From Nonlabens ponticola (GTDB lineage: Bacteria; Bacteroidota; Bacteroidia; Flavobacteriales; Flavobacteriaceae): a stretch of 32,000 nt of DNA. Under the pieces are notes generated by a model. It did not search any database and had not been told where the DNA came from. It saw only the letters and a program-made list of their open reading frames with translations. Below, piece by piece: positions 1,680 to 32,000 of the stretch; the first letter of the stretch is position 1, and each line of letters begins with the position of its first letter. Both the position numbers and the translations under genes were made by a program. Where the stretch lies: positions 2,130,001 to 2,162,000 of the forward strand of contig NZ_CP034549.1 in NCBI RefSeq assembly GCF_003966335.1, given 5' to 3'.

Positions 1680-4484
1680 ATGGCTACAAATCAATTGTTT
1701 GATAATATAGATTCTCTAAGTCCCAAAGAGAATATTCTCATAAAAGGTGCACAATTGCACAACCTCAAAAATCTCAATGCCGTCATACCACGCAACGAGC
1801 TGGTTGTGATAACTGGTTTATCCGGTAGCGGTAAATCATCGCTAGCATTTGATACCTTGTATGCCGAAGGTCAACGCAGGTATGTCGAGAGTCTATCGTC
1901 TTATGCACGCCAGTTTTTAGGAAGGCTCAATAAGCCTAAAGTGGAGTACATAAAAGGAATTGCACCAGCCATCGCGATTGAACAGAAAGTAAATTCTACC
2001 AATCCACGATCTACGGTAGGAACCACGACAGAGGTTTATGATTATCTCAAGTTGCTATTTGCCCGTATAGGTCGCACCATCTCGCCTATCTCTGGCGATG
2101 AAGTAAAGAAAGATACGATTACAGATGTTGTCAATTATATAAAAGAGCAAGAAGAAGGCACCAAACTTTTGCTCACGACAAGACTTCTTATTAAAGGTAA
2201 GCGTGATGTAAAGGAGCAGCTAGCAGTGCTTTTACAGCAAGGATTTACCAGGATAAAAGTCAATGATCAGGTAGTGCGCATTGATCAGGATGATTTAAAC
2301 GTATCAAAAAAAGATGAAGTTTTCATAGTCATCGATCGTATTATCAAACGAGATGATGAGGATTTTTTCAATCGCCTGGCAGATGCTATTGATACTGCGT
2401 TTTTTGAAGGTAAAGGTGTCGCCTATATTGAACACATGGATGGCAGCAAACGTCGTGAGTTTACTAATAAATTTGAGCTGGACGGCATGGAGTTTCTGGA
2501 ACCTAATCCTCATTTATTCAGTTTTAATAATCCGTATGGCGCCTGTCCTAAATGCGAAGGTTATGGCGATGTCATAGGGATTGATGAGGATCTTGTGATA
2601 CCCAACACAGCTTTATCGGTTTATGAGAGCGCAGTCTTCCCATGGCGCGGTGAGAATATGAAATGGTACAAAGAGCAACTCATAAAAAATGCTGACAAAT
2701 TTAATTTCCCTATACATAGGCCTTGGTTTGAATTGACTGAACAGGAAAAGAATCTAGTTTGGGATGGTAACAAATACTTTAGTGGTATCAATGATTTTTT
2801 TGCAGAGCTTGAAGCCAAAGCCTACAAAATTCAAAATCGTGTGATGCTTTCTCGCTATCGCGGTAAGACTAGATGTTTACAGTGTAAAGGCAAGCGATTG
2901 CGCAAAGAGGCCAACTATGTGAAGATCAATGGAACCACCATTACAGATCTTGTTGAGATGCCTATCAAGAAGTTGAAACCATTTTTTGACGAGCTAGAAC
3001 TCAATACTACCGAAGAGCAAATTGCCAAAAGATTACTTAAAGAAATCAGATCGCGACTCAATTTCCTGTCAGATGTTGGGCTTAATTATTTGACACTCAA
3101 CCGTAAGTCAAACACCTTATCCGGTGGTGAATCCCAGCGCATCAATCTTGCTACTTCGCTGGGCAGCAGCTTGGTTGGCAGTATGTATATTCTAGATGAA
3201 CCTAGCATAGGGCTACATCCTCGAGATACGGCGCGACTCATCAAGGTGCTCAAGAACTTGCGCGATCTAGGCAACACGGTTATCGTCGTCGAGCATGATG
3301 AGGAAATCATGCAGGCCGCAGATCGCATCATTGATATAGGTCCTGAGGCTGGCACCCATGGTGGTGAGGTCGTTGCGGCAGGCACACTTGCAGAGATACT
3401 GGAAAGTAGCAGCTTAACCGCTAGCTATCTCAATGGGTCTATGGAGATTCCGCTTCCGCGAAAGCGTAACAAGCACAAATATTACATTGACATTAAAGGA
3501 GCGCGCGAGAATAACTTGAAAAACATTGATGTGCGCTTCCCACTAGGTGTACTTACCATGGTCACTGGTGTTTCAGGTAGTGGAAAAAGTACGCTCGTAA
3601 AGCAGATACTGTATCCAGCTATCATGAAAAAGCTAGGTGGTTACGGTCAAAAACCAGGACAATTCACGGATATATCTGGAAAGTATGAGAACCTAAAAAC
3701 CGTTGAGTTTATTGACCAGAATCCCATAGGTCGTAGCTCGCGTTCCAATCCTGTGACGTATATCAAAGCCTATGATGACATACGTAATTTGATGTCCAAC
3801 CAAAAGTTGTCTCATATCAGGAATTATAAACCAAAGCATTTCTCATTTAATGTGGACGGCGGTCGCTGTGAAACCTGTAAAGGTGATGGTGAGGTAACAA
3901 TCGAGATGCAGTTCATGGCAGATGTCACACTGGTTTGCGAGACCTGTAATGGCAAGCGATTCAAGAAAGATATACTAGAGGTCACGTTTGTAGATAAAAA
4001 TATTGACGATATTCTGAATCTGACGATTGATGACGCCATGGATTTTTTCACAGCGCAAGGAGAAGATAAAATTGCTCGTAAAATCAAGCCGTTAAAAGAT
4101 GTAGGTCTAGGATATGTGACTTTGGGACAAAGCAGCTCTACTCTGTCTGGTGGTGAGGCACAAAGAATAAAACTTGCTAGTTTCTTGGTTAAAGGAACAA
4201 CCAAGGACAAGACGCTATTCATTTTTGACGAGCCTACAACAGGACTTCACTTTCATGATATCAATAAACTATTGGACAGTTTTAATGCACTTATTGAAAA
4301 GGGACATAGCGTGATTGTTATTGAACACAACATGGATCTTGCAAAATGTGCCGATCATATCATCGATCTTGGTCCCAATGGTGGTGCAGATGGTGGATAT
4401 CTAGTGGCGTCAGGAACACCGGAAGAAGTTGCACAGGTAACCGAAAGTTATACGGCACCTTATATAGCAGAAAAGCTATCTTAG
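1680..4484 (+). CDS. uvrA: Excinuclease ABC subunit A
   Basis: Two Walker A motifs (GLSGSGKSS, GVSGSGKST), two LSGGE signatures, and zinc modules CPKCEGYG and CETCKGDG...CETCNG. ATG 1680 (MATNQLF) is preferred over the track's TTG at 1671, which lies inside the putative -7 box. Confidence 0.97.
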   Translation: MATNQLFDNIDSLSPKENILIKGAQLHNLKNLNAVIPRNELVVITGLSGSGKSSLAFDTLYAEGQRRYVESLSSYARQFLGRLNKPKVEYIKGIAPAIAIEQKVNSTNPRSTVGTTTEVYDYLKLLFARIGRTISPISGDEVKKDTITDVVNYIKEQEEGTKLLLTTRLLIKGKRDVKEQLAVLLQQGFTRIKVNDQVVRIDQDDLNVSKKDEVFIVIDRIIKRDDEDFFNRLADAIDTAFFEGKGVAYIEHMDGSKRREFTNKFELDGMEFLEPNPHLFSFNNPYGACPKCEGYGDVIGIDEDLVIPNTALSVYESAVFPWRGENMKWYKEQLIKNADKFNFPIHRPWFELTEQEKNLVWDGNKYFSGINDFFAELEAKAYKIQNRVMLSRYRGKTRCLQCKGKRLRKEANYVKINGTTITDLVEMPIKKLKPFFDELELNTTEEQIAKRLLKEIRSRLNFLSDVGLNYLTLNRKSNTLSGGESQRINLATSLGSSLVGSMYILDEPSIGLHPRDTARLIKVLKNLRDLGNTVIVVEHDEEIMQAADRIIDIGPEAGTHGGEVVAAGTLAEILESSSLTASYLNGSMEIPLPRKRNKHKYYIDIKGARENNLKNIDVRFPLGVLTMVTGVSGSGKSTLVKQILYPAIMKKLGGYGQKPGQFTDISGKYENLKTVEFIDQNPIGRSSRSNPVTYIKAYDDIRNLMSNQKLSHIRNYKPKHFSFNVDGGRCETCKGDGEVTIEMQFMADVTLVCETCNGKRFKKDILEVTFVDKNIDDILNLTIDDAMDFFTAQGEDKIARKIKPLKDVGLGYVTLGQSSSTLSGGEAQRIKLASFLVKGTTKDKTLFIFDEPTTGLHFHDINKLLDSFNALIEKGHSVIVIEHNMDLAKCADHIIDLGPNGGADGGYLVASGTPEEVAQVTESYTAPYIAEKLS
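3452..3465. repeat. Iterated palindrome, one-mismatch copy GCTTCCGCGAAAGC (inside uvrA)
   Basis: Differs from the consensus only at 3456 (T to C). The right flank GTAAC is as in other copies. It encodes LPRKR in the linker before the second Walker A. Confidence 0.7.
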
Positions 4485-4502
4485 TAATCTAATCAATGAT
4501 CT

Positions 4503-6550: not shown

Positions 6551-6564
6551 GCTTTCGCGAAAGC
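6551..6564. repeat. Iterated palindrome GCTTTCGCGAAAGC, exact copy (intergenic)
   Basis: Exact 14-mer, 9 nt downstream of the stop of the 6574-7830 gene. Flanks are gttac / taac. Confidence 0.95.
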
Positions 6565-6573: not shown

Positions 6574-7830
6574 TTATGCCATAGCTGCTGCTACACCAGC
6601 ACTCATACGTTTATATATACCTTTATCTAGGCGTTCTCTAATAGCGTCAAAGGCATCCAGAGTTTCCTCGATATCTTGCATAGTATGCGATGCGGTTGGT
6701 ATCAATCTCAACAAGATCAATCCTTTAGGTATTACTGGATACACCACTATACTACAGAATACACCATAGTTTTCACGCAGGTCTTTTACCAGAGCCATGG
6801 CTTCTGGTATACTACCCTTTAAGTAAACAGGTGTTACACAACTTTGTGTGGTACCTATATCAAAACCTCTTTTCTTGAGGCCTGACTGCAAGGCATTTAC
6901 ATTATCCCAAAGTTTTTCTTTTAACTCTGGCATCGTGCGCAACATGTCAAGACGCTTTAAAGCACCTTTAACTAGTTGCATTTGCAATGATTTAGCAAAC
7001 ATCTGCGAGCGCAGATTGTATTTCAAGTAATCTATGATCTCTTTATCAGCAGCAATAAAAGCACCTGTACTTGCAAGAGACTTTGCAAATGTGGCAAAGT
7101 ACACATCAATTTGATCTTGAACACCTTGCTCCTGTCCTGCTCCAGCACCTGTTTTTCCTAATGTTCCAAAACCGTGCGCATCATCGACAAAAAGACGGAA
7201 GTTGTACTTCTCTTTAAGTGCGACAATCTCCTTCAACTTTCCTTGCTCACCGCGCATACCGAAAACACCTTCTGAAATCACTAGGATTCCGCCGCCAGTT
7301 TCCTCTGCGATTTTTGTCGCGCGTTGCAAGTTCTTTTCTATACTTTCAAGATCATTGTGCTTGTAAGTAAATCGCTTACCGTGGTGCAATCTCACACCAT
7401 CAATGATACAAGCATGTGCATCGACATCATAAACGATAACATCATCTTTGGAAACCAATGCATCAACGGTAGATACCATTCCTTGATAACCGAAGTTCAA
7501 TAGGTAAGCTGCTTCTTTCTCAACAAACTCTGCTAACTCGTCTTGAAGTTGCTCGTGCATATCAGTGTGACCACTCATCATACGAGCACCCATTGGGTAA
7601 GCACTACCATACTCTGCAGCTGCCTCTGCATCTACTTTGCGTACTTCTGGGTGATTAGCGAGTCCTAGATAGTCATTGACACTCCAGGTAATTACCTCAC
7701 GACCATTAAATTGCATACGGTTTGCAATAGGCCCTTCAAGTTTTGGGAATACAAAGTAACCTTCGGCAACAGATGCCCATTTACCTAGTGGTCCTTTGTC
7801 TTTATAAATCTTATCAAATAAGTCTTTCAT
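6574..7830 (-). CDS. PLP-dependent alpha-oxoamine synthase family acyltransferase, serine palmitoyltransferase / cysteate-C-fatty-acyltransferase (CapB/SulA)-like
   Basis: 418 aa. NDYLGLANHP motif, HG-rich DDAHGFG, and PLP-lysine context ATFAKSLASTGAFIAAD. That context resembles Bacteroidota SPT/CFAT-type enzymes (TFSKSLAS) more than E. coli Kbl (TLGKALGG). The family call is firm. The substrate call is inference. Confidence 0.85.
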   Translation of the reverse strand: MKDLFDKIYKDKGPLGKWASVAEGYFVFPKLEGPIANRMQFNGREVITWSVNDYLGLANHPEVRKVDAEAAAEYGSAYPMGARMMSGHTDMHEQLQDELAEFVEKEAAYLLNFGYQGMVSTVDALVSKDDVIVYDVDAHACIIDGVRLHHGKRFTYKHNDLESIEKNLQRATKIAEETGGGILVISEGVFGMRGEQGKLKEIVALKEKYNFRLFVDDAHGFGTLGKTGAGAGQEQGVQDQIDVYFATFAKSLASTGAFIAADKEIIDYLKYNLRSQMFAKSLQMQLVKGALKRLDMLRTMPELKEKLWDNVNALQSGLKKRGFDIGTTQSCVTPVYLKGSIPEAMALVKDLRENYGVFCSIVVYPVIPKGLILLRLIPTASHTMQDIEETLDAFDAIRERLDKGIYKRMSAGVAAAMA

Positions 7831-7998: not shown

Positions 7999-8349
7999 TC
8001 ACTCATCGTCCAATCTCACATCGGTGACTTTATAAAATTGTTCGGGAAACAAATTTGCTGTACAAATGAAAATCCCTTCTTCCGATCGTTCCATTTGAAA
8101 CGTGATGTTTATTCCTTCAGTCTTAAATTGATCAGGTAGTGTTGCGGTGATTATATCGTATTCAAAAAAATCAACCTCAATGGAATAAGCCGAATCGCCT
8201 GCATCTGTAGAACATGAAGCTGGACCGACAACTGTACCGTTCACCATGTCATTATCAGCATCATCATCTGATGAGCAGCTACTAAGGAAACATAGAAATA
8301 TGGTGAATAGAATACCGATATATTTGAAGCGTTGAAGAAGAAAATACAT
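7999..8349 (-). CDS. Hypothetical small lipoprotein
   Basis: 116 aa. Signal peptide plus lipobox (FLCFLSSCSSDDD). No recognisable domain. Confidence 0.55.
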   Translation of the reverse strand: MYFLLQRFKYIGILFTIFLCFLSSCSSDDDADNDMVNGTVVGPASCSTDAGDSAYSIEVDFFEYDIITATLPDQFKTEGINITFQMERSEEGIFICTANLFPEQFYKVTDVRLDDE

Positions 8350-10042: not shown

Positions 10043-12094
10043 TCATCGCTCCTGATTCTCAAGATCTAGCAGGAAGGCAAACTCTAGCGCGACTTCTTTT
10101 AATGCGTCGTATCTACCAGAGGCACCGCTGTGTCCACTGGACATATCTGTTTTGAAAAGGATTTGTTGATCACCCGTATGATATTCACGCAAGCGAGCGA
10201 CCCATTTAGCTGGCTCCCAATATTGTACCTGACTATCATGGTAACCAGTGGTTACAAAGGTATTAGGATAAGACTGACTACTCACCTGATCATATGGCGA
10301 GTACGACAGCATGTACTCATAGCTGTCTTTATTATTAGGATTTCCCCATTCGTCATATTCACCTGTAGTTAGTGGTATCGTGTCGTCCAGCATAGTTGTC
10401 ACGACATCGACAAAAGGCACCGCAGCAAGGATACCGTTGTATAAATGCGGTGCCAGATTCATGATGGCACCCATTAACAATCCACCTGCAGATCCACCGC
10501 TGGCGTATAAGTGTCCCGCTTTCGCGAAAGCGTGATCCAACAAATATTCACTACAAGCAATAAAGTCGGTAAAGGTGTTGCGCTTCTCAAACATGCGGCC
10601 TTGCTCGTACCATTCACGGCCTAGATACTCGCCGCCACGCACATGGGCAATAGCAAAGACAAAACCGCGATCCAATAAACTAAGTCTAGAAATTGAGAAA
10701 TAAGGATCTATAGTCGATCCATAACTACCATAGCCGTACTGCAGTAATGGATTGCCATCTTCCTGCTTCAAGTCTTTTCTATATACCAGACTTATTGGGA
10801 TGCGCTTGCCATCACTCGCTGTTGCCCAAACTCGTTGGGAATCATAGTTGTTGGGATCAAAATCAGGATCCTCGATGGGTTGAGTTTTGAGAACTCGCTC
10901 CTCTTGAGTATCCATATTAAATTCCATAATTGATGGTGGCGTGGTGAGCGAATTGTAGGCATATCGCAGCCACACATTTTCAAATTGAAAATTGGCACTC
11001 GTATATGCAGTATAGGTTTCACTTGAAAAAGGTAAAAAATAATCCACCGTACCATCCCAAGCCTTGATTCGTATTCTATTGAGACCGTTAAATCGATCTG
11101 TAATCACCAGATACTTCTTGAAAATATCAATGTCTTCAAGAAGTGATTTAGGATCATGCGGTATGACGTCCACCCAATTTTCCATTTGTGGTGTCTCAAT
11201 CATGGTTTTCATTACCTTAAAATTGAAGGCTCCATCCTTATTAGTCATCATGTAAAAGGAGTCTTGATAATGAGAAACACTGTATTCCATTTCAGGCACT
11301 CTACTTTGTATGACCTTGAAGGTGCTGTCAGGTTTTGCGGCCTCAATGTATCTCACTTCATCACTCATAGTAGATGAAGACTTGATCATGATGTACTTCT
11401 CTGACATGGTTTTATAGACAAAGGAGCTGAAGGTTTCGTCCTTTTCTTCATACACTACGGAAGCACTATCTACTGGTTGACCCCATAAATAGCGGTAGAT
11501 TTTGTTTGCTCTTAAGGTTTGTGGATCCTTGCGAGCAAAGAACAAGGTCGCGTTATCATTTGCCCAGACAGAGCTGCCTGTAGTGCCAAGTACACATTCT
11601 TCCTTGATCTGGCCAGTAGAAAGGTCTTTCACAAATAAAGAATATTCCCTTCGGCCTATGCTGTCGACACCATAAGCCACCAAATTATTATTAGGTGAAA
11701 TGTTGAGGCCAACTAGTTTGTAGAATTCGTGGCCTTCAGCCATTTCATTGACATTGAACAGTAGTATATCTTCATCAGTACCATCCTTGCGTCGGTAATA
11801 GAATGGATAGGACTCGCCTTGTTCCATCTTAGTAAAATACCAGTAGCCATTGTATAAATAAGGAACAGACTGATCATCTTCCTTTATGCGTGCTTTGATT
11901 TCTTCAAAGAGACTGTTCTTGAGCTCTGTAGTGTGAGCAGTCATTTGCTCATAGTAATCATTTTCTTCTTCTAGATACTGGATTACCTCAGGAGCATCGC
12001 GATCACGCATCCAGTGATAAGGATCTATGCGTTCATGATCGTGTTTGCTGTGTACGTGATTGATTTTTTTAGCTACTGGTGGCTTGATAGACAT
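10043..12094 (-). CDS. ptrB: Oligopeptidase B / prolyl oligopeptidase family S9A serine peptidase
   Basis: N-terminal beta-propeller-type region and a C-terminal catalytic domain with GGSAGG (YASGGSAGGLLMG). ATG 12094 (MSIKPPVAKK) is preferred over the track start at 12139. Confidence 0.9.
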   Translation of the reverse strand: MSIKPPVAKKINHVHSKHDHERIDPYHWMRDRDAPEVIQYLEEENDYYEQMTAHTTELKNSLFEEIKARIKEDDQSVPYLYNGYWYFTKMEQGESYPFYYRRKDGTDEDILLFNVNEMAEGHEFYKLVGLNISPNNNLVAYGVDSIGRREYSLFVKDLSTGQIKEECVLGTTGSSVWANDNATLFFARKDPQTLRANKIYRYLWGQPVDSASVVYEEKDETFSSFVYKTMSEKYIMIKSSSTMSDEVRYIEAAKPDSTFKVIQSRVPEMEYSVSHYQDSFYMMTNKDGAFNFKVMKTMIETPQMENWVDVIPHDPKSLLEDIDIFKKYLVITDRFNGLNRIRIKAWDGTVDYFLPFSSETYTAYTSANFQFENVWLRYAYNSLTTPPSIMEFNMDTQEERVLKTQPIEDPDFDPNNYDSQRVWATASDGKRIPISLVYRKDLKQEDGNPLLQYGYGSYGSTIDPYFSISRLSLLDRGFVFAIAHVRGGEYLGREWYEQGRMFEKRNTFTDFIACSEYLLDHAFAKAGHLYASGGSAGGLLMGAIMNLAPHLYNGILAAVPFVDVVTTMLDDTIPLTTGEYDEWGNPNNKDSYEYMLSYSPYDQVSSQSYPNTFVTTGYHDSQVQYWEPAKWVARLREYHTGDQQILFKTDMSSGHSGASGRYDALKEVALEFAFLLDLENQER
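10518..10531. repeat. Iterated palindrome GCTTTCGCGAAAGC, exact copy (inside ptrB)
   Basis: Exact 14-mer. It encodes AFAKA in DHAFAKAGHLYASGGSAGG, just upstream of the catalytic serine motif. Confidence 0.95.
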
Positions 12095-12199: not shown

Positions 12200-12523
12200 A
12201 TGTTTGGCGATATGATGGGCATGATGGGAAAACTTAAAGAAACCCAGAAAAAGGTTGAAGAAACTAAAAACAGAATGACTACAGTCCTTATCGATGAGAA
12301 GTCTAGTGATGACCTTCTTAACGTGACAGTAACCGCAGATAGATCGATAAAGAAAATCGATATTGCAGATGAGCTGCTTGCTGATAAAGAACAACTTGAG
12401 GACTATCTAATAGTAACGCTCAACAAGGCCTTGTCAAGAGCTAGTGACATTTATGACAAAGAGGTCGCTGCTGTTGCCAGTGAAGGAATGCCTAACATTC
12501 CAGGTATGGACATGTTTAAATAG
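12200..12523 (+). CDS. ybaB: YbaB/EbfC family nucleoid-associated DNA-binding protein
   Basis: 107 aa. Typical N-terminus [21 protein letters not shown] and central [16 protein letters not shown]...[13 protein letters not shown]. Confidence 0.85.
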
Positions 12524-12702: not shown

Positions 12703-13716
12703 TCAATTACCAAATTCACTCATCAACCTCATAAACTCATCATGCTGCTCATCGGTATAATCTAGATGCGTTACTAGTCTCAACTTACCAGAACCCATAT
12801 TACTGATGATGATATCATTTTTGGCGCAAAAATTCATCACGGCAATCTCGTCCTGAACCTCAAAGATCACTATGTTGGTTTCTACTGGTTCTACTTTTTC
12901 CACCCATGACAACGTGGACAAAAATGTGCCTAATGCTATTGCTTTATCGTGATCCTGTTTAAGCCTATCTATATTATGATCTAGTGCATAAATCGCCGCA
13001 GCCGCCATGTAGCCTGTCTGGCGCATGCCACCGCCCAAGACTTTGCGCACGCGCATCGCTTTTTTCATGATCTCAGCTTTTCCTGCAAGCACAGTGCCTT
13101 GTGGCGTTCCCATTCCTTTTGAGAAACAAACGGAAACTGTGTCAAATATTTCGCCGTATTCCGTAGGATTTTGACCTGTTTTGACTAGTGCATTCCACAA
13201 TCTAGCGCCATCCAGGTGTAATCCCAACTCGTGCTCATCGGCAACCTCTTTGATCTCTTTTACAATATTCCAGTTATAACAAGCGCCGCCACCTTTATTG
13301 GTCGTGTTTTCTAAACAGACAAGACTGGTGAATGGACTGTGATAGAAATCTGGTGGGTTGATCGCATCCTCAACCTGCTGTGCGGTAATCATACCTCTAG
13401 AACCGTCGACTAGTTTACAGGAAACACCACTATTGAAAGACACGCCACCACCTTCATAATTATAGACGTGCGCGTACTTATCACATATCAATTGCTCGCC
13501 AGGTTGCGTGTGCATCTTGATCGCGGCCTGATTTGCCATGCTACCTGTAGGGAAAAAGAGCGCGTCATCCATCCCAAACATTTCGGCAACGCGACGTTCA
13601 AGCTCATTGACGGTAGGATCTTCCTTATATACGTCATCGCCAACTTCGGCATTGAACATGGCATCCAGCATGCCTTTGCTAGGCTTCGTTACCGTGTCAC
13701 TTCTTAAATCAATCAT
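12703..13716 (-). CDS. ltaE: Low-specificity L-threonine aldolase
   Basis: N-terminal MIDLRSDTVTKPS motif and PLP-lysine context SVCFSKGMGTP. ATG 13716 is preferred over the track start at 13752. Confidence 0.88.
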   Translation of the reverse strand: MIDLRSDTVTKPSKGMLDAMFNAEVGDDVYKEDPTVNELERRVAEMFGMDDALFFPTGSMANQAAIKMHTQPGEQLICDKYAHVYNYEGGGVSFNSGVSCKLVDGSRGMITAQQVEDAINPPDFYHSPFTSLVCLENTTNKGGGACYNWNIVKEIKEVADEHELGLHLDGARLWNALVKTGQNPTEYGEIFDTVSVCFSKGMGTPQGTVLAGKAEIMKKAMRVRKVLGGGMRQTGYMAAAAIYALDHNIDRLKQDHDKAIALGTFLSTLSWVEKVEPVETNIVIFEVQDEIAVMNFCAKNDIIISNMGSGKLRLVTHLDYTDEQHDEFMRLMSEFGN

Positions 13717-13720
13717 AGTA

Positions 13721-13728
13721 TATATTTG
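13721..13728 (+). promoter_or_regulatory. Candidate distal -7 box (TAnnTTTG) reading toward prfB
   Basis: TATATTTG on the plus strand, 155 nt upstream of the prfB ATG. If used, palindrome copy 13772-13785 would lie in the 5' UTR. A weaker box, TATTTTTA, lies at 13856-13863. Confidence 0.25.
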
Positions 13729-13771
13729 CGATGATGGTGTTGGATTACGCACTTGAGTTAGCTCTGCACAC

Positions 13772-13785
13772 GCTTTCGCGAAAGC
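13772..13785. repeat. Iterated palindrome GCTTTCGCGAAAGC, exact copy (intergenic)
   Basis: Exact 14-mer in the divergent ltaE / prfB intergenic region. Confidence 0.95.
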
Positions 13786-18652: not shown

Positions 18653-19742
18653 ATTGTGGTATAATTAATTGAATGTCAAATTGTTTTGCTTTCGCGAAAG
18701 CGGAATTCTTAAATTTCTCTAACACATCATCATCCTTGAGAATACTAATGGCATGTTGCGCCATTTCTTGGACGTTTCCCACATCACTCGTGTATCCAGT
18801 CACGCCATGGTCATTCACCTCAGGTAATCCACCAGTATTGGTCGAGATCACTGGCGTATGGTTCGCCATGGCTTCAAGCGCAGCGAGACCAAAGCTTTCC
18901 TTCTCAGATGGCAACAGGAATAGATCAGAAAAACACAAGATGCGGTCAATCTCTGTACTATTACCCAGCCATTTGATTTTGAGCTGTAGATTTTTCTTGC
19001 GTGCGTACTCTTCTGCTTCTGCGCGGTCTGTGCCGTCGCCTACCATTACTAGAATACTAGGTACTTCTTTCTCAATAAGTTCAAAGATCTTGACAACATC
19101 TTTAATGCGTTTTACAGGTCGCATATTACTGATGTGAGTGATGATACGTTCTTGTGGGAATGCCATAAAAGATCGATCGCAATTATCAAACTCTGTCTTG
19201 TAAAGCGACATATCGATGAAGTTGGGAACGACATTGATTTCTTTGGTAATGTCAAATAAGTCAAGAGTGTCCTGTCGCAAACTAGCAGATACCGAAGTAA
19301 CCACATCGCTATTATTGATACTAAAGGTTACCGAGGGTTTATAAACTGGATGATTACCTACAAGAGTAATATCTGTGCCATGCAAGGTGGTCACCATAGG
19401 TAGATGGATATTTTGCTCCTTCAACATTTGCTGCGCCATGTAACCTGCATAAGCATGTGGTATAGCATAATGCACGTGCAACACATCAATCCCATATTCC
19501 TGTACCACATTGACCAACTTACTACTCAAGGCAAGATCATACGGCTGGTAATGAAATAACGGATATTCCTCTACATCAACCTCATGAAAGTAGATCTGAT
19601 GACTCAACAGCTCAAGACGTACAGGCATTTTGTAAGTGACAAAATGTACCTCGTGACCACGATGAGCGAGAGCCGTTCCCAGCATGGTTGCTACTACACC
19701 ACTACCGCCAAATGTTGGATAACAAACAATCGCAATTTTCAT
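18615..19742 (-). CDS. bshA: N-acetyl-alpha-D-glucosaminyl L-malate synthase (bacillithiol biosynthesis glycosyltransferase, GT4)
   Basis: 375 aa. N-terminus MKIAIVCYPTFGGSGVVATMLGTALAHRGHEVHFVT parallels Bacillus BshA. GT4 motif EKESFGLAALEAMANHTPVI. Confidence 0.85.
   Translation of the reverse strand: MKIAIVCYPTFGGSGVVATMLGTALAHRGHEVHFVTYKMPVRLELLSHQIYFHEVDVEEYPLFHYQPYDLALSSKLVNVVQEYGIDVLHVHYAIPHAYAGYMAQQMLKEQNIHLPMVTTLHGTDITLVGNHPVYKPSVTFSINNSDVVTSVSASLRQDTLDLFDITKEINVVPNFIDMSLYKTEFDNCDRSFMAFPQERIITHISNMRPVKRIKDVVKIFELIEKEVPSILVMVGDGTDRAEAEEYARKKNLQLKIKWLGNSTEIDRILCFSDLFLLPSEKESFGLAALEAMANHTPVISTNTGGLPEVNDHGVTGYTSDVGNVQEMAQHAISILKDDDVLEKFKNSAFAKAKQFDIQLIIPQYEELYQSLISNS
18688..18701. repeat. 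Iterated palindrome GCTTTCGCGAAAGC, exact copy (inside bshA)
   Basis: Exact 14-mer. It encodes AFAKA in KNSAFAKAKQFD near the BshA C-terminus. Confidence 0.95.
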
Positions 19743-19754: not shown

Positions 19755-22679
19755 TTACTCAATGATCGCATCATAGATTATTTGCTGAATTTTAGTCCTG
19801 ATATCTTCCTTAATCAAATACCGATTGCTGGCATCTGGATGAACACGGTTTGCCAGGAAAACGTAAACTAGTTCCTCTTCAGGATCTGCCCATGTGTAGG
19901 CGCCTGTAAAACCACTGTGACCAAAGCTTTTATTACTTAAACAGTTACAGGTATTGCCTACAGTGCCGTCAATCGACGGCTTGTCAAAACCGACGCCGCG
20001 ACGTACATCGTCATCAGCGTAATATTGAAAATTGAACTTATCAAACGTCTCTTCTTTAAAATATCGCTTACCACCGTAAGTTCCTTTTTGAAGGTACATC
20101 TGCATGATTTTGGCAACATCATTTGCAGTACTAAATAATCCTGCATGACCACCTATGCCACCTTGCATGGCAGCACCTTGATCGTGGACATAACCGTGCA
20201 CTAATTGCCTGCGAAATAGCGTGTCATTCTCAGTAGGTGCGATTTGAATTTTAGGAAATCTCTTTAATGGCAAATAACCTGTATGATTCATTCCCATGGA
20301 TTGGTAAAAATGGTCCTGGGTTAATTCATTCAGATCTTTAGAATAATAGCTTTCCACATAATCTTTCATCATGTAATAAGGCAAATCGCTGTATTTGTAT
20401 CCTTCACGTTCCCGCAAATCGCTTGATACAATACGATTGAGCATGGTGTCGCTCACAATAGATCGAGCATAGAAATGGTCAGCTATTTCGGTTTGAAAGT
20501 CTTTTCTTCTAGATTTTGCATAAAGGTTGTCCAATGGCTCATTGGTAATAGAATCAAGCGTATACCTGTAAAAAGGTATCCAGGCTTGCAATTGTGCCAC
20601 GTGAGAAAGGATTTGCTTTACCGTTAGCGTGTCTTTATTGGTATTAGCATATTTAGGAAGCAAACTACCTATGGTTGACTCAAGACTCATTACTTGCCGC
20701 TCTTCTAATTCCATGACCAGCGGTAATGTGGCCAGTATTTTAGTTACCGATGCTACATCATAAATATTATCATCTTTTACGGGCGTATTCATACTGTAAT
20801 CCAGATGGCCATAATTTTTATCAAAAATTACTTTTCCCTTACGCGCCACAACGATTTGCATGCCTGGCGCACCTTTTTCTTCAATAGTAAGGTTTGCGAT
20901 AGAATCAATTTTATTAAGCATTGATCCATTCATACCTACACTACTGGGCGTGTGACCATAAGAAAGTCTATTGATAGAGGTCACGTCGATTCCAGCACCT
21001 ACTTTAAACTCACCAGAGCTTACGGGTAATCTACCTTCTATCTCACGAGCACCAAAAATCATTTGAGCACTTATCTTCTGGCTCCACTCGCTATTTTGAT
21101 AAGACATCAAGACAGCTTCTATGGACTCAATACCAGTAAGTTGTTCAAGCATATATGGTCGCAAAAATAAGTCAAGAATGACGACATTTTGCTGTGCAAG
21201 TTGTTTGATCAGTTCAAGTTCTGATTTTTTGAGTGTGTATGATTTCCAAGGTGTTGCATTACTGCGATGAGCACCAATGATAATAGTATTATACTGTTGA
21301 GCGCGATTGAGAATGGTGGCGTTACTTCCTGAAAGCTGATCAACTTGAGTGTAACGCTTCAATTCCTTGAAAAACATAGATCCATCATCATCACCTACTT
21401 TGACATAAGCAATTTTTTTAGTCTCTAGATTTTTAATAGGTAGTAATGAATCTTGATTTTTTAGCAACGTGATACTGCTAGCCATGGCTCGCTCGTGAAC
21501 TACCTCGTCGATTTCTTGATTGAGATCACTCACCAAATTTACAGTGTCAATTGGCTGATAATTAGCTAGACCTACTTTGTATTTGGTCATCAATATTTTC
21601 TTCACACTATGCTCTAGGCGATCCTTAGTAACGTCACCGTCAAGGATGGCTTTATTAATCAGCTTAATGGACTTTGGGATATCCTCAGAAATTAATAGCA
21701 CATCATTACCTGCTTTAAAAGCTGCCAAATCAATAGCTCCAGGTTCACTGTAATTACTAGCGCCTTTCATATTGAGAGCATCTGTAAAAATCAAACCTTT
21801 AAAATCCAATTGTTCTTTGAGCATTCCAGTCACTACTTTCTTGCTGATACTGGTAGGATAACCAGATCTGCTTTCTAGGCTTGGAATATTCAAATGCGCC
21901 ACCATCACACTAGCTAGACCATTATTGATCAGTTTTCTATAAGGATAAAGCTCTACACTATCAATGCGCTGCGCAGTGAATTTGACTGTCGGTAATGTTT
22001 TATGACTATCTTGATCTGTATCGCCGTGACCTGGGAAATGCTTTGCACACGCCAGTGTTCCTGTACTTTGCATGCCTTGCATAAATGCATAAGCCTTGCT
22101 CGTTACATTGCCACGATCCTCGCCAAAACTACGGTTCCCAATAATCGGATTCTTAGGATTTGTATTGATATCCACGTCAGGAGCAAAATTGATATGAACT
22201 CCTAGCCTTTTACAATGTTCGCCAATACGCTCGCCTACTTCATAGCTGCTTCTTTCAGTTTGAGATGCACCTAGGGTCATATTCCAGGGAAAGGCGTGTA
22301 CGCTATCCAATCTCATCGCAAGACCCCATTCGGCATCCATAGCAATGAGCATGGGCGTTTTAGAGACTGCCTGTAATTCATTTGTTAAAGCAGCTTGTTG
22401 CATAGGGCCACCTTTTGAGAATATGATGCCGCCTATTTTTTGCTTCTTGACCAGTTCGCGCACTTTGTTGATATGCGCTGTTCCTTTATTGGAGAATAAA
22501 TCCACCATAAACAATTGGCCTATTTTCTCCTCTTGCGTCAAGCTGTTGTACACGCTGTCGACCCATTGTTGTTGGGCTTGAACTTCTATGGCCTGTAGTG
22601 GTTGTCTTGCAAGTGCTGCTTGAGAGTTTGCTTTCGCGAAAGCAAAAACCCCTAAAATCAACAATACTATTCTATGCAT
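19755..22679 (-). CDS. Fusion protein: glycoside hydrolase family 3 (NagZ-like beta-N-acetylhexosaminidase) N-domain plus serine hydrolase/beta-lactamase-fold C-domain
   Basis: GH3 motif KHFPGHGDTDQDSH in the N-half. S-x-x-K motif DVASVTKILAT in the C-half. Signal peptide MHRIVLLILGVFAFA. ATG 22679 is preferred over the TTG at 22706. Confidence 0.88.
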   Translation of the reverse strand: MHRIVLLILGVFAFAKANSQAALARQPLQAIEVQAQQQWVDSVYNSLTQEEKIGQLFMVDLFSNKGTAHINKVRELVKKQKIGGIIFSKGGPMQQAALTNELQAVSKTPMLIAMDAEWGLAMRLDSVHAFPWNMTLGASQTERSSYEVGERIGEHCKRLGVHINFAPDVDINTNPKNPIIGNRSFGEDRGNVTSKAYAFMQGMQSTGTLACAKHFPGHGDTDQDSHKTLPTVKFTAQRIDSVELYPYRKLINNGLASVMVAHLNIPSLESRSGYPTSISKKVVTGMLKEQLDFKGLIFTDALNMKGASNYSEPGAIDLAAFKAGNDVLLISEDIPKSIKLINKAILDGDVTKDRLEHSVKKILMTKYKVGLANYQPIDTVNLVSDLNQEIDEVVHERAMASSITLLKNQDSLLPIKNLETKKIAYVKVGDDDGSMFFKELKRYTQVDQLSGSNATILNRAQQYNTIIIGAHRSNATPWKSYTLKKSELELIKQLAQQNVVILDLFLRPYMLEQLTGIESIEAVLMSYQNSEWSQKISAQMIFGAREIEGRLPVSSGEFKVGAGIDVTSINRLSYGHTPSSVGMNGSMLNKIDSIANLTIEEKGAPGMQIVVARKGKVIFDKNYGHLDYSMNTPVKDDNIYDVASVTKILATLPLVMELEERQVMSLESTIGSLLPKYANTNKDTLTVKQILSHVAQLQAWIPFYRYTLDSITNEPLDNLYAKSRRKDFQTEIADHFYARSIVSDTMLNRIVSSDLREREGYKYSDLPYYMMKDYVESYYSKDLNELTQDHFYQSMGMNHTGYLPLKRFPKIQIAPTENDTLFRRQLVHGYVHDQGAAMQGGIGGHAGLFSTANDVAKIMQMYLQKGTYGGKRYFKEETFDKFNFQYYADDDVRRGVGFDKPSIDGTVGNTCNCLSNKSFGHSGFTGAYTWADPEEELVYVFLANRVHPDASNRYLIKEDIRTKIQQIIYDAIIE
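22630..22643. repeat. Iterated palindrome GCTTTCGCGAAAGC, exact copy (inside the GH3/beta-lactamase signal peptide)
   Basis: Exact 14-mer, extended to the 20-bp palindrome TTTGCTTTCGCGAAAGCAAA. It encodes AFAKA in LGVFAFAKANSQ. Confidence 0.95.
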
Positions 22680-23566: not shown

Positions 23567-24358
23567 CTATAAGTCTTCGGCAGTGGCGATAAGTTCGGCT
23601 AGGTCAAGTACTTCTACTTGCCCTTCTTTATTAGCAGCCTTGATACCGTCGCTCATCATCGTATTACAAAATGGACAAGCTGCGGCAATAACGTCTGCAC
23701 CTGTTTCTAGAGCTTCTTCAGTGCGTTCAATGTTGATGTCCTTTTTACCTTCTTCTGGTTCTTTAAACATTTGTGCGCCGCCCGCACCACAACATAAACC
23801 GTTACGCTTACTGCGTTTCATTTCTACCAGCGCAGCATCTAGCTTTTCTATAAGGTCACGCGGTGCCTCATAAATATCGTTAGCACGACCTAAGTAACAT
23901 GGATCGTGATAGGTGATTTTTTTACCCTTAAACTTACCGCCTTCAATTGTCAATTTACCAGTTGCGATAAGATCCTTAAGAAATGAGGTGTGGTGAATGA
24001 CTTCATAATTACCGCCTAATTCTGGGTACTCATTTTTAAGTGTATTAAAACAGTGAGGACAAGCGGTGACAATTTTCTTGATCTCATAGCCGTTGAGTAC
24101 CTCAATATTCATCATCGCCTGCATCTGGAATAAGAACTCGTTACCAGCACGTTTTGCAGGGTCGCCCGTACAGCTTTCTTCAGCTCCCAATACTGCAAAC
24201 TCGACGCCTGCCTTGTTAAGAAGCTTAACAAAAGCCTTAGTTATCTTCTTTGACCTATCGTCAAAACTACCACTACAGCCCACCCAGAATAATACTTCTG
24301 GTTGTTTGCCTTGTGCAACATACTCTGCAACTGTTGGTACTTTTATGGTCTCACTCAT
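23567..24358 (-). CDS. CCG-domain (cysteine-rich) Fe-S protein, HdrD/DsrK/GlpC C-terminal-like
   Basis: 263 aa. Two Cys-rich modules. The first is degenerate (GCSGS...SCTGD...CPHC). The second is canonical (PCYLGR...CCGAGG...CPFC). Confidence 0.85.
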   Translation of the reverse strand: MSETIKVPTVAEYVAQGKQPEVLFWVGCSGSFDDRSKKITKAFVKLLNKAGVEFAVLGAEESCTGDPAKRAGNEFLFQMQAMMNIEVLNGYEIKKIVTACPHCFNTLKNEYPELGGNYEVIHHTSFLKDLIATGKLTIEGGKFKGKKITYHDPCYLGRANDIYEAPRDLIEKLDAALVEMKRSKRNGLCCGAGGAQMFKEPEEGKKDINIERTEEALETGADVIAAACPFCNTMMSDGIKAANKEGQVEVLDLAELIATAEDL

Positions 24359-24454: not shown

Positions 24455-24468
24455 GCTTTCGCGAAAGC
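24455..24468. repeat. Iterated palindrome GCTTTCGCGAAAGC, exact copy (intergenic)
   Basis: Exact 14-mer, 10 nt downstream of the HAD gene stop and 96 nt upstream of the CCG-protein start. The left flank is a T run and the right flank is GTAATCC. Confidence 0.95.
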
Positions 24469-24478: not shown

Positions 24479-24904
24479 TTAATCCTTAAACACCTCAATG
24501 GTTGCTTTTTTCTCGACGAGATCTGTGAACTCGCCTTTATATCTAGTGGCACGCACCATATGATTATCAATCCAGTGGTAATTGCCGCCGCGAGGCTTTC
24601 CCATCAATAGACTGTGAAATTTAAAACCGTGTTTGTTCAACCAGTTTTCGGTCACTTCTCGATGCTCCTCAGTTCTTGATGTAAAGAAACAAATCTTGTG
24701 ACCATTGTCGTACCAACCGTTCAAGGTTTCTAAGGCATCAGGAAAAGGCTCGCAGGTCTCCATGCGTTCTGGCTCTTCGTTAGGTACATCTTCAGTTACG
24801 GTACCATCTATATCAATCAAATAATTTTTTACGCCATCAGCAAGTACGGGACTTATCAGCGATCCATCTTCTGCTTTGGTTTCTATAAAATTGTTGTCGC
24901 TCAT
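24479..24904 (-). CDS. HAD-superfamily phosphatase-like protein
   Basis: DxDxT motif (LIDIDGTVTED), motif II FFTSR, motif III GKPRGG, and IDNH. ATG 24904 overlaps the upstream stop as TAATG. The track start at 24952 is probably too long. Confidence 0.7.
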   Translation of the reverse strand: MSDNNFIETKAEDGSLISPVLADGVKNYLIDIDGTVTEDVPNEEPERMETCEPFPDALETLNGWYDNGHKICFFTSRTEEHREVTENWLNKHGFKFHSLLMGKPRGGNYHWIDNHMVRATRYKGEFTDLVEKKATIEVFKD

Positions 24905-26262
24905 TATAATTCGTTTGCCCAGTTTAAACGGTCTTGTTGATTGTACGGCCATGGTGCGCCGTTGTTCTCGATGTTACTCATGGTAACGTTAAGCTCTGTA
25001 GGTGCTGCGCTGTTTTCTAATACTAGATAACGTCTCATGTCCATAATGATACTCAATGGATCGATACCTATAGGACAGGCCTCGACACAGGCATTACATG
25101 TAGTACATGCCCAAAGTTCTTCAACGCTTATGTAATCATTCAACAATTTTTTACCATCATCCTCAAACTTGCCTTTCTTATTTATGATTTCTCCTACATC
25201 TTCTAGTCGATCACGCGTGTCCATCATGATTTTACGTGGACTCAATTTCTTACCGGTAATATTTGCAGGACATTCTGCAGTACAACGACCGCACTCTGTA
25301 CAAGTGTATGCGTTGAGCAACTGTACTTGATTCAAGTCAAATATATCGCTAGCTCCTAGGGATGCTGGTTCTTCATCTGCCGCCACAGGATCTGGTGCGG
25401 CAAAAGGATCTGCATTAGGATCCATCATGAGCTTTACCTCGGCAGTAACGGCCTCCATGTTAGTAAACTGACCTTTAGGTGTGAGTTTTGCAAAATACAC
25501 ATTGGGAAAAGCAAGCATGATGTGCAAGTGCTTTGACCAATATAAATAGTTCAAGAAAATCAAGATACCTACAATGTGTGCCCACCAGCATGCACGCTCA
25601 ATTAAATGCAGCGTGTCAAAGCTCATACCATCAAATAATGGAGTAATCCATGAACTAATGGGGAAACTACCGGCCTGTACGTAATGAGTTGCTGCCTCGC
25701 TAGTAAACTGTCCAGCTGCGACGCCTTGCTGGATCGCAAGATCTGCGGCATTCATGGTAAGGAACAGCAACATCAATACCACTTCAAAGTAAAGAATATA
25801 ATTGGCATCGTTTTTAGGCCAACCTTTAAGTTCACGAGCTAGAAAACGTCTGATATTCATCACGTTCCTGCGTATCCAGAAAATAATTACGGTAGCCAGA
25901 ACTAGGAAAGCCAATATTTCAAAGGTCGCGATCAATACATCATAAAGACCACCCAAAAATGGTGCGAAAATCCTGTGCTGGCCCGTTAAACCATCGATGA
26001 TGATTTCAAGCACTTCAATATTAATGATTACAAAACCTACATAGACCACGAAGTGCAGGATTCCAGCGATAGGCCTGCGTACCATTTTTGATTGCCCTAA
26101 TGCGATGCGAGCAGTTTGTGCCCAGCGTTCACCCTTATTATCCGATCGATCTACTTCTCTACCCAACTTGACGTTGCGTATCATCCTGCGTATGTTTCTT
26201 GTAAAAAAACCTACCATACCTATAAGTAGTATGGCAAAAACGATCATTGGTAGGTACTCCAT
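24904..26262 (-). CDS. Membrane-anchored 4Fe-4S dicluster protein (DsrM/HdrE/NarI-like polytopic domain fused to a DsrK/HdrD-like ferredoxin domain)
   Basis: 452 aa. About 5 TM helices with conserved His residues (ILHFVVY, WWAHIVGIL, SKHLHIMLAF), then CTECGRCTAECP and CTTCNACVEACP cluster motifs. Confidence 0.85.
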   Translation of the reverse strand: MEYLPMIVFAILLIGMVGFFTRNIRRMIRNVKLGREVDRSDNKGERWAQTARIALGQSKMVRRPIAGILHFVVYVGFVIINIEVLEIIIDGLTGQHRIFAPFLGGLYDVLIATFEILAFLVLATVIIFWIRRNVMNIRRFLARELKGWPKNDANYILYFEVVLMLLFLTMNAADLAIQQGVAAGQFTSEAATHYVQAGSFPISSWITPLFDGMSFDTLHLIERACWWAHIVGILIFLNYLYWSKHLHIMLAFPNVYFAKLTPKGQFTNMEAVTAEVKLMMDPNADPFAAPDPVAADEEPASLGASDIFDLNQVQLLNAYTCTECGRCTAECPANITGKKLSPRKIMMDTRDRLEDVGEIINKKGKFEDDGKKLLNDYISVEELWACTTCNACVEACPIGIDPLSIIMDMRRYLVLENSAAPTELNVTMSNIENNGAPWPYNQQDRLNWANEL

Positions 26263-28417: not shown

Positions 28418-28431
28418 GCTTTCGCGAAAGC
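28418..28431. repeat. Iterated palindrome GCTTTCGCGAAAGC, exact copy (intergenic)
   Basis: Exact 14-mer in the divergent amidase / LptD-like intergenic region. The right flank is GTAATTACC. Confidence 0.95.
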
Positions 28432-28463
28432 GTAATTACCAAAAATCACTTTGAAATTATATG

Positions 28464-28471
28464 TAGTTTTG
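28464..28471 (+). promoter_or_regulatory. Candidate -7 promoter box (TAnnTTTG) for the LptD-like gene
   Basis: TAGTTTTG is an exact consensus match, 50 nt upstream of the TTG start at 28522. Confidence 0.35.
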
Positions 28472-28521
28472 ACAATTCAAAAACCAGACCATTTCCATTA
28501 ACGAATATACCCTAGTATAGA

Positions 28522-31233: not shown

Positions 31234-31254
31234 ACGATACACTCAAATTTTCAC

Positions 31255-32000
31255 TTAGTTAAGAACAGGTGTCTCCTTTAAAATCTCCTTCAAGAATTTC
31301 CAGAATTTTTGAACTGATTTGATTTCTACAAATTCGTCTGGACTGTGTGCTCGTCTTATATTAGGGCCAAAGGAGATCATGTCTAAACCTGGATAACGCT
31401 CGCCCAGAATGCCACACTCCAATCCTGCGTGACAAGCCACTACCCTAGGCTTTTCTTGAAACAGGATTTTGTATTGAGCCTCGGCAATTTTGAGCATCTC
31501 GCTGTTCAAATTTGGCTGCCAGCCTGGATAATCACCAGTAAATTCGACGTCAAGACCATTGAGACGCATCACACCGGCGATGGTTCCTTTTAGATCATCT
31601 TTCTGGCTCTCGACTGATGATCGAGATAGACAGGCAACTTCTAAAGCACCATCTTCCAAAACGACTCTTGCAAGATTATTACTGGATTGCACCAAGTCAT
31701 CAAAATCGGGACTCCAGCGGTAAACACCATTGACTATTCCCAACAGCATGTAAATAAGGTTTGCGGTATCAATTTCGCTTAAGGCCTTATGACTTTCGGT
31801 ACTTTCAATCTCGATAGACATGTTAGGTTCCAGACTTTCATATTCAGCAAGAATTGCAGTTTTACACCTTTTAAATGCATCAATGATTTTTTTGTTCTCG
31901 CTTTCGCGAAAGCTAACCACGCTAACTGCTTCTCTAGGTATAGCATTTCTCAAACCACCGCCATTAAATTCCTGCAAGTGGATTTTACCATTGTTGCGCA
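31255..32000 (-). CDS. pepD: Aminoacyl-histidine (Xaa-His) dipeptidase, 5' end outside the window
   Basis: The frame stays open to the window edge. FNGGGLRNAIPREA and the C-terminal GPNIRRAHSPDEFVEIKSVQKFWKFLKEILKE parallel E. coli PepD. Confidence 0.9.
   Translation of the reverse strand, partial: RNNGKIHLQEFNGGGLRNAIPREAVSVVSFRESENKKIIDAFKRCKTAILAEYESLEPNMSIEIESTESHKALSEIDTANLIYMLLGIVNGVYRWSPDFDDLVQSSNNLARVVLEDGALEVACLSRSSVESQKDDLKGTIAGVMRLNGLDVEFTGDYPGWQPNLNSEMLKIAEAQYKILFQEKPRVVACHAGLECGILGERYPGLDMISFGPNIRRAHSPDEFVEIKSVQKFWKFLKEILKETPVLN
31900..31913. repeat. Iterated palindrome GCTTTCGCGAAAGC, exact copy (inside pepD)
   Basis: Exact 14-mer, read in a different frame (SFRES in VVSFRESENKK). 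Confidence 0.95.

Follow-up and report, generated by a model that had tools for sequence, protein, structure and literature searches.

A highly iterated 14-bp palindrome in Nonlabens, Dokdonia and related Flavobacteriaceae

Copies of the palindrome in the window and in related genomes

We analysed a 32-kb stretch of the Nonlabens ponticola genome (contig NZ_CP034549.1, positions 2,130,001 to 2,162,000, hereafter the window; G+C content 40%), along which the perfect 14-bp palindrome GCTTTCGCGAAAGC is iterated. A pattern search yielded eight exact copies and a single copy with one mismatch, GCTTCCGCGAAAGC (Table 1), and no further copies in the window at up to two mismatches. The positions are the same as those listed in a first-pass annotation of this DNA. 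At up to two mismatches 0.08 copies are expected per window, and nine copies were reached in none of 100 dinucleotide-preserving shuffles; by our own arithmetic, a zero-order model gives about 6e-5 exact copies per 32 kb at 40% GC, an enrichment of more than 1e5-fold. Chance is therefore excluded for the window copies, as the first-pass annotation had concluded.

The host genes named in that annotation (uvrA, ptrB, bshA, a GH3 fusion gene and pepD) were confirmed by translation of the open reading frames (ORFs), NCBIfam and homology, and five of the nine copies do lie in coding sequences. The BshA encoded in the window matches the N. ponticola protein at 100% identity. The intergenic copy at 24455 is located 97 nt upstream of a CCG-domain gene (23567..24358, minus strand). 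The copy at 28418 falls within a TTG-extended ORF, yet the likely start codon of the amidase gene, an ATG, is about 24 nt further downstream.

Table 1. Copies of the palindrome in the window (+ and -, strand of the gene)
Copy	Position	Location	Remarks
One mismatch, GCTTCCGCGAAAGC	3452..3465	in uvrA (+)	in-frame L-P-R-K (..EIPLPRKRNK..); UvrA equivalog
Exact	6551..6564	convergent spacer, 10 nt beyond the stop of a BioF/Kbl-family acyltransferase gene (6574..7830, -)	flanks ttac/taac
Exact	10518..10531	in oligopeptidase B gene ptrB (-)	A-F-A-K-A in variable stretch ..LLDH-AFAKA-GHLYASGGSAGG..
Exact	13772..13785	divergent spacer, threonine-aldolase-like gene (-) / prfB (+)	
Exact	18688..18701	in bshA (-)	encodes A-F-A-K-A
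Exact	22630..22643	in GH3/beta-lactamase fusion gene (-)	signal-peptide end A-F-A/K-A, MHRIVLLILGVF-AFAKA-NSQAA
Exact	24455..24468	tandem spacer, 11 nt past the stop of a 157-aa gene (24479..24952, -)	
Exact	28418..28431	divergent spacer, amidase gene (-) / LptD-like gene (+)	
Exact	31900..31913	in PepD-like dipeptidase gene (-, runs off the window)	in-frame F-R-E-S (..VVSFRESENKK..)

The 14-mer was searched for in the genomes of 185,579 species (596 Gb). Among the 120 matches listed, 57 belong to Nonlabens, Dokdonia or strain BBFL7 and 26 to uncultured Flavobacteriaceae (together 83). Among these listed matches, entries of the clade often hold two or three copies per 8-kb block, and nearly all other taxa are represented by single matches, as chance predicts in 596 Gb. 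A second view, which does not depend on the motif, is given by 21-kb loci anchored on bshA and syntenic with the window. Six exact copies are found in the locus of N. agnitus (21 kb) and six in that of a lineage with 74% BshA identity. The locus of Nonlabens sp. MIC269 contains three exact copies, that of Nonlabens sp. Ci31 three exact and one one-mismatch copy, and that of a related metagenome contig four exact copies. Further one-mismatch copies accompany the exact ones in N. ulvanivorans (three exact, two with one mismatch) and N. arenilitoris (four exact, one with one mismatch). Over 159 kb of ingroup loci there are 33 exact 14-mers against approximately zero expected, and clade members carry about one copy per 3.5-7 kb.

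Three outgroup loci (L129, and L127 and L128, of which L127 is from Aquimarina) contain no copies even at up to two mismatches. One of them, L129, has the same LptD-amidase-...-GH3-bshA gene order as the window and a BshA that is 70% identical. No iterated sequence of at least 12 nt of their own, which would be a "dialect" of the motif, was found in L127-L129 or in the Nonlabens phage P12024S, which is described below. Hence the boundary to the sister lineages is sharp, and the palindrome marks the clade of Nonlabens, Dokdonia and their uncultured relatives in Flavobacteriaceae.

Conservation, structure and placement of the copies

Each of the six copies in the N. agnitus locus has its orthologue in the window. 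The matter of orthologous positions in sister species, raised in the first-pass annotation, is answered by five sites that recur through Nonlabens: the LptD/amidase spacer, the spacer upstream of the CCG-domain gene, the GH3 signal peptide, bshA, and the prfB/aldolase spacer. Occasional independent one-base decays are seen among the orthologous copies.

The intergenic sites are much better conserved than their surroundings. In the LptD/amidase spacer, the copy at 28418 has orthologues in N. agnitus, N. ulvanivorans, N. arenilitoris and the lineage of locus L125, and pairwise identity is 1.0 in the motif columns against 0.70 in the rest; in outgroup L129 the sequence under the motif is unrelated and of equal length. 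The copy at 13772, in the prfB/aldolase spacer, has conserved counterparts in N. agnitus, Nonlabens sp. Ci31 and N. arenilitoris and one with a single mismatch in N. ulvanivorans; the identities are 0.97 and 0.49, respectively. In a more distant metagenome-assembled genome (L105, aldolase 69% identical) the orthologous spacer is without the motif. The copy at 24455 is shared by N. agnitus and Nonlabens sp. MIC269 and has decayed independently, by one mismatch each, in N. ulvanivorans and N. arenilitoris; here pairwise identity is 0.74 in motif columns and 0.46 elsewhere.

Two of these spacers show further features. A two-mismatch variant, GCTTTCGCGAAAAT, is common to two unrelated clade genomes (L125:19435-19448 and L105:939-952); the copy in L125 is located directly upstream of the annotated prfB start and may be a decayed remnant of the prfB/aldolase site. 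Beside the copy at 28418, a block of about 60 nt (..TATATTCGTTAAT.GAAATGGTCTGGTTTTTGAA..TCAAAACTACATATAATTT.., window positions ~28440-28510) is conserved across Nonlabens. It is also found at L121:1051-1140 and is recognisable in the motif-free outgroup (L129:1330-1400). The block has no Rfam match and may be a promoter, a 5' leader or a small RNA.

Among the genic sites, bshA has the same 14 nucleotides in seven of the seven motif-bearing relatives sampled, while neighbouring synonymous positions differ. Therefore the constraint is on DNA, not on RNA or protein. The outgroup bshA genes have GCGTTTAATCAGGC, GCCTTTGCTGAGGC and GCAAAAGAAGCATC at the motif position. The peptide AFAKA is fixed in 59 of 120 BshA homologues, and distant homologues have AKEAA, AFQQA and the like at equal length. 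In ptrB the motif is shared with N. agnitus, and N. ulvanivorans and N. arenilitoris have NYTSP or GYTST of equal length, a length-neutral swap of LLDH-AFAKA-GHLY for LINN-NYTSP-SHLY. The GH3 site recurs in six other Nonlabens loci, in Ci31 with a single mismatch, although the signal peptide otherwise varies in both length and sequence; the GH3 signal-peptide copies elsewhere include L121:7106, L124:7073, L130:7073 and L131:7073.

The presence of the motif changes sequence length neither in bshA nor in ptrB nor, compared with the outgroup, in the LptD/amidase spacer. Orthologous sites that lack the motif differ from it at 5-11 of the 14 nucleotides, with no intermediates among the sampled taxa. 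New copies thus replace existing sequence, without insertion. Length-neutral gain and loss together with orthologous conservation exclude transposition and indicate that the DNA sequence is maintained site by site.

Placement relative to genes could be classified for 152 copies: 101 (about 66%) are in ORFs and 51 in spacers. Per base, spacers are enriched about threefold, since 34% of the copies fall in the approximately 14% of DNA outside called ORFs. The spacer copies comprise 31 tandem, 15 divergent and 5 convergent cases, roughly in proportion to spacer length. In long ORFs the motif is read as AFAKA 57 times, as FRES 23 times and as LSRK 21 times. A protein-level cause, namely selection for the AFAKA peptide, was rejected: all three frames are used, a third of the copies are intergenic, the codons are invariant and outgroups vary freely. 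A subset of the AFAKA copies forms the A-x-A end of signal peptides, where a motif kept at the DNA level seems to have been recruited as a cleavage site for signal peptidase. A translation with a hydrophobic stretch, AFAKA and a polar stretch is seen at many other clade copies (e.g., L026:4855, L043:1303, L100:6347 and L110:157).

The flanks were analysed for 146 copies from about 650 kb of clade loci. Position -1 is C and position +14 is G in 81% of them, positions -3/-4 are T-rich and +16/+17 A-rich, and the full consensus is a 22-bp palindrome, TTaC-GCTTTCGCGAAAGC-GtAA. The 22-mer of the first-pass annotation, TTACGCTTTCGCGAAAGCGTAA, is this extended consensus. Beyond about 4 nt the flanking sequences are mutually unrelated, and their composition is skewed. 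On the 5' side C falls to 0.08 against a background of 0.18, with T and G raised; on the 3' side G falls to 0.10 against 0.21, with A and C raised. The skew is mirror-symmetric and spans some 25-30 nt per side; it peaks between -2 and -20 and has faded out at about -30. It occurs on both sides in 67% of the copies compared with 18% of random positions, and in all three reading frames as well as in spacers. The mean skew index is 3.5 for sites with the motif (n=11) and -0.3 for those without it (n=22), in a small sample that is not phylogenetically independent. The first-pass annotation had denied the palindrome any longer conserved body, which is right for the sequence and wrong for the composition, given the symmetric skew body of 25-30 nt on each side. 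Signal peptides were discarded as a general cause of the skew; a minority of the copies lie there, and the skew is present in all frames and in spacers. It could originate from extended protein contacts, from a preference for single strands free of secondary structure, or from strand-specific deamination of repeatedly unwound DNA.

As a single strand, the element would fold into a hairpin of -2.1 kcal/mol (14-mer) or -7.3 kcal/mol (22-mer). Past 4 nt on either side, complementarity of the flanks is no higher than with shuffled partners, and a longer hairpin or the body of a miniature inverted-repeat transposable element (MITE) is ruled out. The flank logo contains no position-specific promoter-like signal, with at most 0.5 bit beyond position -1. 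Together with the unbiased orientation of the spacers, this dismisses a promoter or terminator role.

It is very improbable, therefore, that the motif is a miniature mobile element, such as a MITE, a repetitive extragenic palindrome (REP) or a REP doublet forming a hairpin (REPIN), or else a transcription signal, such as a terminator or a regulon operator. Its palindromic form and the threefold per-base excess in spacers would suit such an element, and TTAC by a hairpin recalls the target tetranucleotides of IS200/IS605 elements and REP-associated tyrosine transposases (RAYTs). However, 66% of the copies are genic and no length is added relative to orthologues or the outgroup spacer; the flanks are unrelated, the hairpin is not extended, the sites are orthologous across genera rather than polymorphic insertions, and the host genes are functionally unrelated. 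An intrinsic terminator in particular is rejected by the weak 14-mer hairpin, by the A-rich sequence without a T tract that follows the motif and by the lack of a bias towards convergent spacers (5 of 51). Rfam covariance models gave no matches at gathering thresholds anywhere in the window. The first-pass annotation had set aside terminators, REPs and MITEs on similar grounds, and we reach the same result.

The unit under selection can be delimited by nested counts in the 159 kb of ingroup loci, where TCGCGA occurs 47 times (33 of them in the motif), the 10-mer 35 times, the 14-mer 33 times and the 16-mer 23 times. Outside the motif there are 14 TCGCGA against about 20 expected, CGCG overall is found 210 times against 220 expected, and half-sites are almost confined to the full palindrome. 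Since TCGCGA is not enriched outside the 14-mer, the selected unit is the whole 14-16-mer, and enrichment is all-or-none. This speaks against a simple 6-bp target of a methyltransferase or restriction enzyme, and the same counts rule out that the unit is a 6-bp methylation site. Exact, one-mismatch and two-mismatch copies stand in the ratio 146:13:14, exact copies outnumbering one-mismatch copies about 10:1. In the motif-free outgroups L127-L129 (63 kb, a small sample) TCGCGA is seen once against about six expected, and restriction pressure on the hexamer may differ between ingroup and outgroup.

The first-pass annotation had considered TCGCGA or CGCG a plausible target of a methyltransferase or restriction-modification system. 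The base counts just given speak against this proposal. A related explanation, previously discussed for the cyanobacterial highly iterated palindrome HIP1, is that an orphan methyltransferase or a restriction-modification system with short-patch repair, acting on the CpG core, over-produces its own context. The core does contain TCGCGA, an NruI-type site, and CGCG, HIP1 is tied to orphan methyltransferases (PMC4390886), and a process acting on any resident DNA would explain the copies in prophage-like elements (see below). We nevertheless regard this by-product model as quite improbable: neither TCGCGA outside the motif nor CGCG is in excess, 14-16 fixed positions far exceed the known specificity of short-patch repair, and even spacing and site conservation denote selection site by site and not mutational bias.

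The nine window copies follow one another at distances of 1.8-4.9 kb; the coefficient of variation is 0.25, lower than for uniform placement (P = 2.4e-4). Among 53 spacings from 43 independent 8-kb loci that carry two or more copies, 2 fall below 1 kb versus 14.5 expected, and none of 20000 simulations gave a value as low. Thus the copies avoid one another, and the evenness is short-range, on the kilobase scale. The spacings overall are 0.9-6.8 kb, which also rejects an array of clustered regularly interspaced short palindromic repeats (CRISPR), with repeats about 25-50 bp apart, in agreement with the first-pass annotation.

Because of the exact two-fold symmetry, the all-or-none 14-16-bp unit, the mirror-symmetric flanks and the weak hairpin, we infer that the element is recognised as double-stranded DNA, and the reader would be a homodimeric sequence-specific protein. 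One candidate is a dimeric nucleoid-associated protein confined to the clade, or else a ParB-, Noc- or SlmA-like loader or unloader, acting on the 16-bp palindrome; regular sites would then organise, compact or segregate the chromosome. A two-fold site of 14-16 bp with two half-sites of 7-8 bp is the classic homodimer format, the flank preferences are mirror-symmetric, spacing is even and positions are conserved, and the sites are indifferent to genes and to the direction of transcription. A role in chromosome architecture has been proposed for HIP1 by Xu et al. (PMC5861425). All the same, we consider an architectural function rather unlikely. The known specific architectural sites (parS, the Noc-binding site NBS, the SlmA-binding site SBS, matS) number tens per genome and tolerate degeneracy, whereas several hundred letter-perfect copies are implied here. 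Conservation in the structural genes of diverged phages is not predicted, and the motif is weakly similar to parS or the Noc-binding site, with 6 of 16 positions matching in our own alignment to the consensus sequences.

Copies in phages and other features of the window

A scan of IMG/VR for the motif gave mostly single chance matches in high-GC contigs. A family of low-GC contigs stands out with two or three copies per 11-14 kb and typical flanks (L220, L245, L248, L217, L136/L185 and L184). PHROGs on these contigs include portal, head-maturation protease, major head and adaptor genes, and their nearest cultured relative is Cellulophaga phage phi39:1. We refer to them as a family of flavobacterial siphoviruses or prophages. 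The viral copies lie inside structural genes, e.g., ..DTAFAKAKIKDNNV.. in a protease/scaffold-like gene and ..GVRFRESENHKATME.., and their positions are retained in diverged members; in a comparison of L220 with L217, the motif is intact and flank identity is 59%. The lytic Nonlabens phage P12024S (35.7 kb) has no copies at up to two mismatches; it encodes its own Erf-like annealing protein and a YqaJ-like exonuclease. A tblastn search with the Erf, YqaJ and SSB proteins of P12024S against the motif-bearing viral loci, which are partial, found an SSB homologue only.

These observations bear on an explanation modelled on Chi, in which the motif, or a protein bound to it, would act as a protective self tag that halts or switches a processive RecBCD/AddAB-type nuclease or translocase of the host, or a defence motor. 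Any resident replicon would gain from one copy per few kilobases, and a palindrome would serve an enzyme arriving from either side. The density of about one copy per 4-5 kb is close to that of Chi in Escherichia coli, about one per 4.5 kb. Even spacing with a scarcity of short gaps is expected if the longest unprotected gap counts. Copies are conserved in the portal/protease/head/adaptor region of the siphovirus or prophage family, and P12024S, which lacks the motif, has its own annealing protein and exonuclease; this contrast matches the pattern of Chi in phages that Bobay et al. reportedly described in 2013. In addition, the 5' flank is G/T-rich on both strands, and RecA is said to prefer G/T-rich single-stranded DNA (a finding ascribed to Tracy and Kowalczykowski, 1996). 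The phage pattern, the spacing and the G/T-rich 5' flank suit this model rather well, but we still judge the Chi-like explanation unlikely. All Chi sites known to us are 5-8 nt long, asymmetric, read as single-stranded DNA and biased in orientation, and a perfect palindrome of 14-16 bp resembles none of them; on format alone, the motif is not a Chi site. Moreover, the phage contrast is between one cultured phage and one metagenomic family, of which the captured segments are partial.

Two other features of the window were recorded. A perfect 8-bp tandem repeat, TAGTGGAT, is present in 12.9 copies with 100% matches at 12521-12623; this microsatellite-like array occupies the convergent spacer between a YbaB-like ORF (12200..12523, plus strand) and the threonine-aldolase-like gene (12703..13752, minus strand). 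At 7999-8924, two small ORFs (116 and 185 aa, minus strand) lie between a PALP-domain gene (cysteine synthase-like) and the acyltransferase gene. The syntenic N. agnitus locus has the two flanking genes side by side and lacks these ORFs, which form a strain- or species-specific insertion without a motif copy.

Relation to known iterated motifs and possible function

In the sampled clade loci, GCTTTCGCGAAAGC is the invariant core of a genome-wide iterated palindrome of the class that comprises HIP1 and the uptake sequences, i.e., the uptake signal sequences (USS) of Haemophilus and the DNA uptake sequences (DUS) of Neisseria. The first-pass annotation had pointed to this class, and its view is upheld by the clade-wide occurrence of the motif, letter-perfect orthologous copies, absence from sister lineages and even spacing. 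The excess over expectation reaches orders of magnitude, copies are both genic and intergenic, conservation exceeds background, and the spacing is non-random.

HIP1 (GCGATCGC) is cyanobacterial and has the cognate orphan methyltransferases DmtA and DmtC. Like HIP1, the present motif is a perfect palindrome with a CpG core that contains a restriction-type sub-site; both are hyper-abundant in genes and spacers, clade-restricted, selected at orthologous sites and non-randomly spaced, and the function of HIP1 has long been unknown (PMC5861425, PMC4390886). The motif is not HIP1 proper, since the sequence and the phylum (Bacteroidota, not cyanobacteria) are different. HIP1 is 8 bp long, reaches more than one copy per gene and has a periodicity of 18-94 kb, whereas this motif is 14-16 bp long, occurs about once per 4-5 kb and is evenly spaced on the kilobase scale; it is all-or-none, the inner 6-mer is not enriched alone, and it has skewed flanks of about 25 nt.

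With USS and DUS the motif shares exact clade-specific copies by the hundreds, absence from neighbouring lineages, a location in genes for about two-thirds of the copies (genic:intergenic 2:1) with a frame bias (here 57:23:21) and in tolerant protein segments, gain by substitution and not insertion, and a core with low-information flanks (PMC2817400). In contrast to USS and DUS, it is palindromic, longer and 3-5 times sparser, it does not form terminator pairs in spacers, some phage genomes carry conserved copies of it, and the outgroup samples contain no dialect of it.

Other systems are less similar. The motif resembles Chi in density (about one per 4-5 kb), clade specificity, the importance of single mismatches, a G/T-rich context and its carriage by some phages; Chi differs in being 5-8 nt long, asymmetric and oriented with replication, with a few-fold excess as opposed to more than 1e5-fold. 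REPs, REPINs and MITEs are likewise short palindromes that reach hundreds of copies, are vertically inherited and are sometimes bound by host proteins. REPs, however, are extragenic, imperfect, 20-40 nt long and RAYT-dependent, and they add length. Finally, parS, NBS and SBS are (near-)perfect dimer palindromes of 12-16 bp placed along the chromosome regardless of genes, but they are more degenerate and their sequence likeness to the motif is weak.

Searches of open-access full text found the 14-mer in no paper, although an earlier description outside that literature is possible, and found no paper connecting iterated palindromes with Flavobacteria. Matches of "palindrom" for Dokdonia or Nonlabens appear incidental by title and low count, and probably reflect the CRISPR name. 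Elhai (2015) does not mention Bacteroidetes, phage or VSP (very-short-patch repair). Relative to the HIP and USS class, the new traits are the phylum, the longer format, the skewed flanks, the even spacing on the kilobase scale and the phage-carried copies.

Our tentative first choice for the function is a species "self" tag in DNA exchange, akin to an uptake or transformation-enhancing sequence; a Chi-like protective tag and an architectural binding site come next, side by side. Molecular drive (a bias in uptake or recombination), selection, or the two together would increase the number of copies, keep them intact and penalise redundant neighbours. The statistics are like those of USS and DUS in clade specificity, exactness, genic-to-intergenic ratio, frame bias and origin by substitution. 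Riemerella columbina, assigned to Flavobacteriaceae in the respective paper, is naturally competent and prefers its own DNA (PMC7965970). HIP1 is reported to enhance transformation and has been proposed to be an uptake sequence (bioRxiv 10.1101/2024.09.10.611283; 10.64898/2026.06.24.733823), and it is under selection and non-randomly spaced (PMC5861425).

Several points weigh against a self tag. The function is argued by analogy with these systems. The uptake sequences known to us have 9-12 nt, and we know of none that is palindromic. Pure uptake drive does not predict an intact motif in the structural genes of diverged phages, a pattern that fits a tag benefiting any replicon in the host. Graded, stepwise drive should leave more near-copies than the few one- and two-mismatch copies observed, and orthologues in the absent state are 5-11 of 14 positions off. 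The flank skew is unaccounted for by every functional model, the self tag included. Lastly, the densities were estimated on about 0.8 Mb of loci, and much of this sample was picked for containing a copy.

Genome-wide maintained motifs are rare, and those that are understood (USS/DUS, Chi, and the FtsK-orienting polar sequences, KOPS) each exposed a core mechanism of DNA handling. HIP1 has been without explanation for 30 years. The present motif adds an independent case in abundant, culturable marine flavobacteria, and its much greater length makes it statistically clean; motif-free sister lineages, phages with and without the motif, and the flank signature make the function of such a palindrome directly testable. 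The 14-mer is a near-unique clade marker for metagenomes and may offer a handle for better genetic transformation of Nonlabens and Dokdonia. Annotation should take into account that the motif imposes AFAKA, FRES and LSRK on unrelated proteins, including at signal-peptide cleavage sites.

We speculate, with more doubt than for the self tag as such, that the motif is the first sequence-specific tag for self-DNA in Bacteroidota: a clade-specific dimeric protein would read the 16-bp palindrome and its skewed flanks, and temperate phages of these hosts would have copied the tag to pass as self. If so, the reader protein would control the uptake of DNA, its recombination or its protection from degradation in Nonlabens and Dokdonia, and the motif would represent an independent invention of the USS/DUS, HIP1 or Chi principle in a new recognition format.

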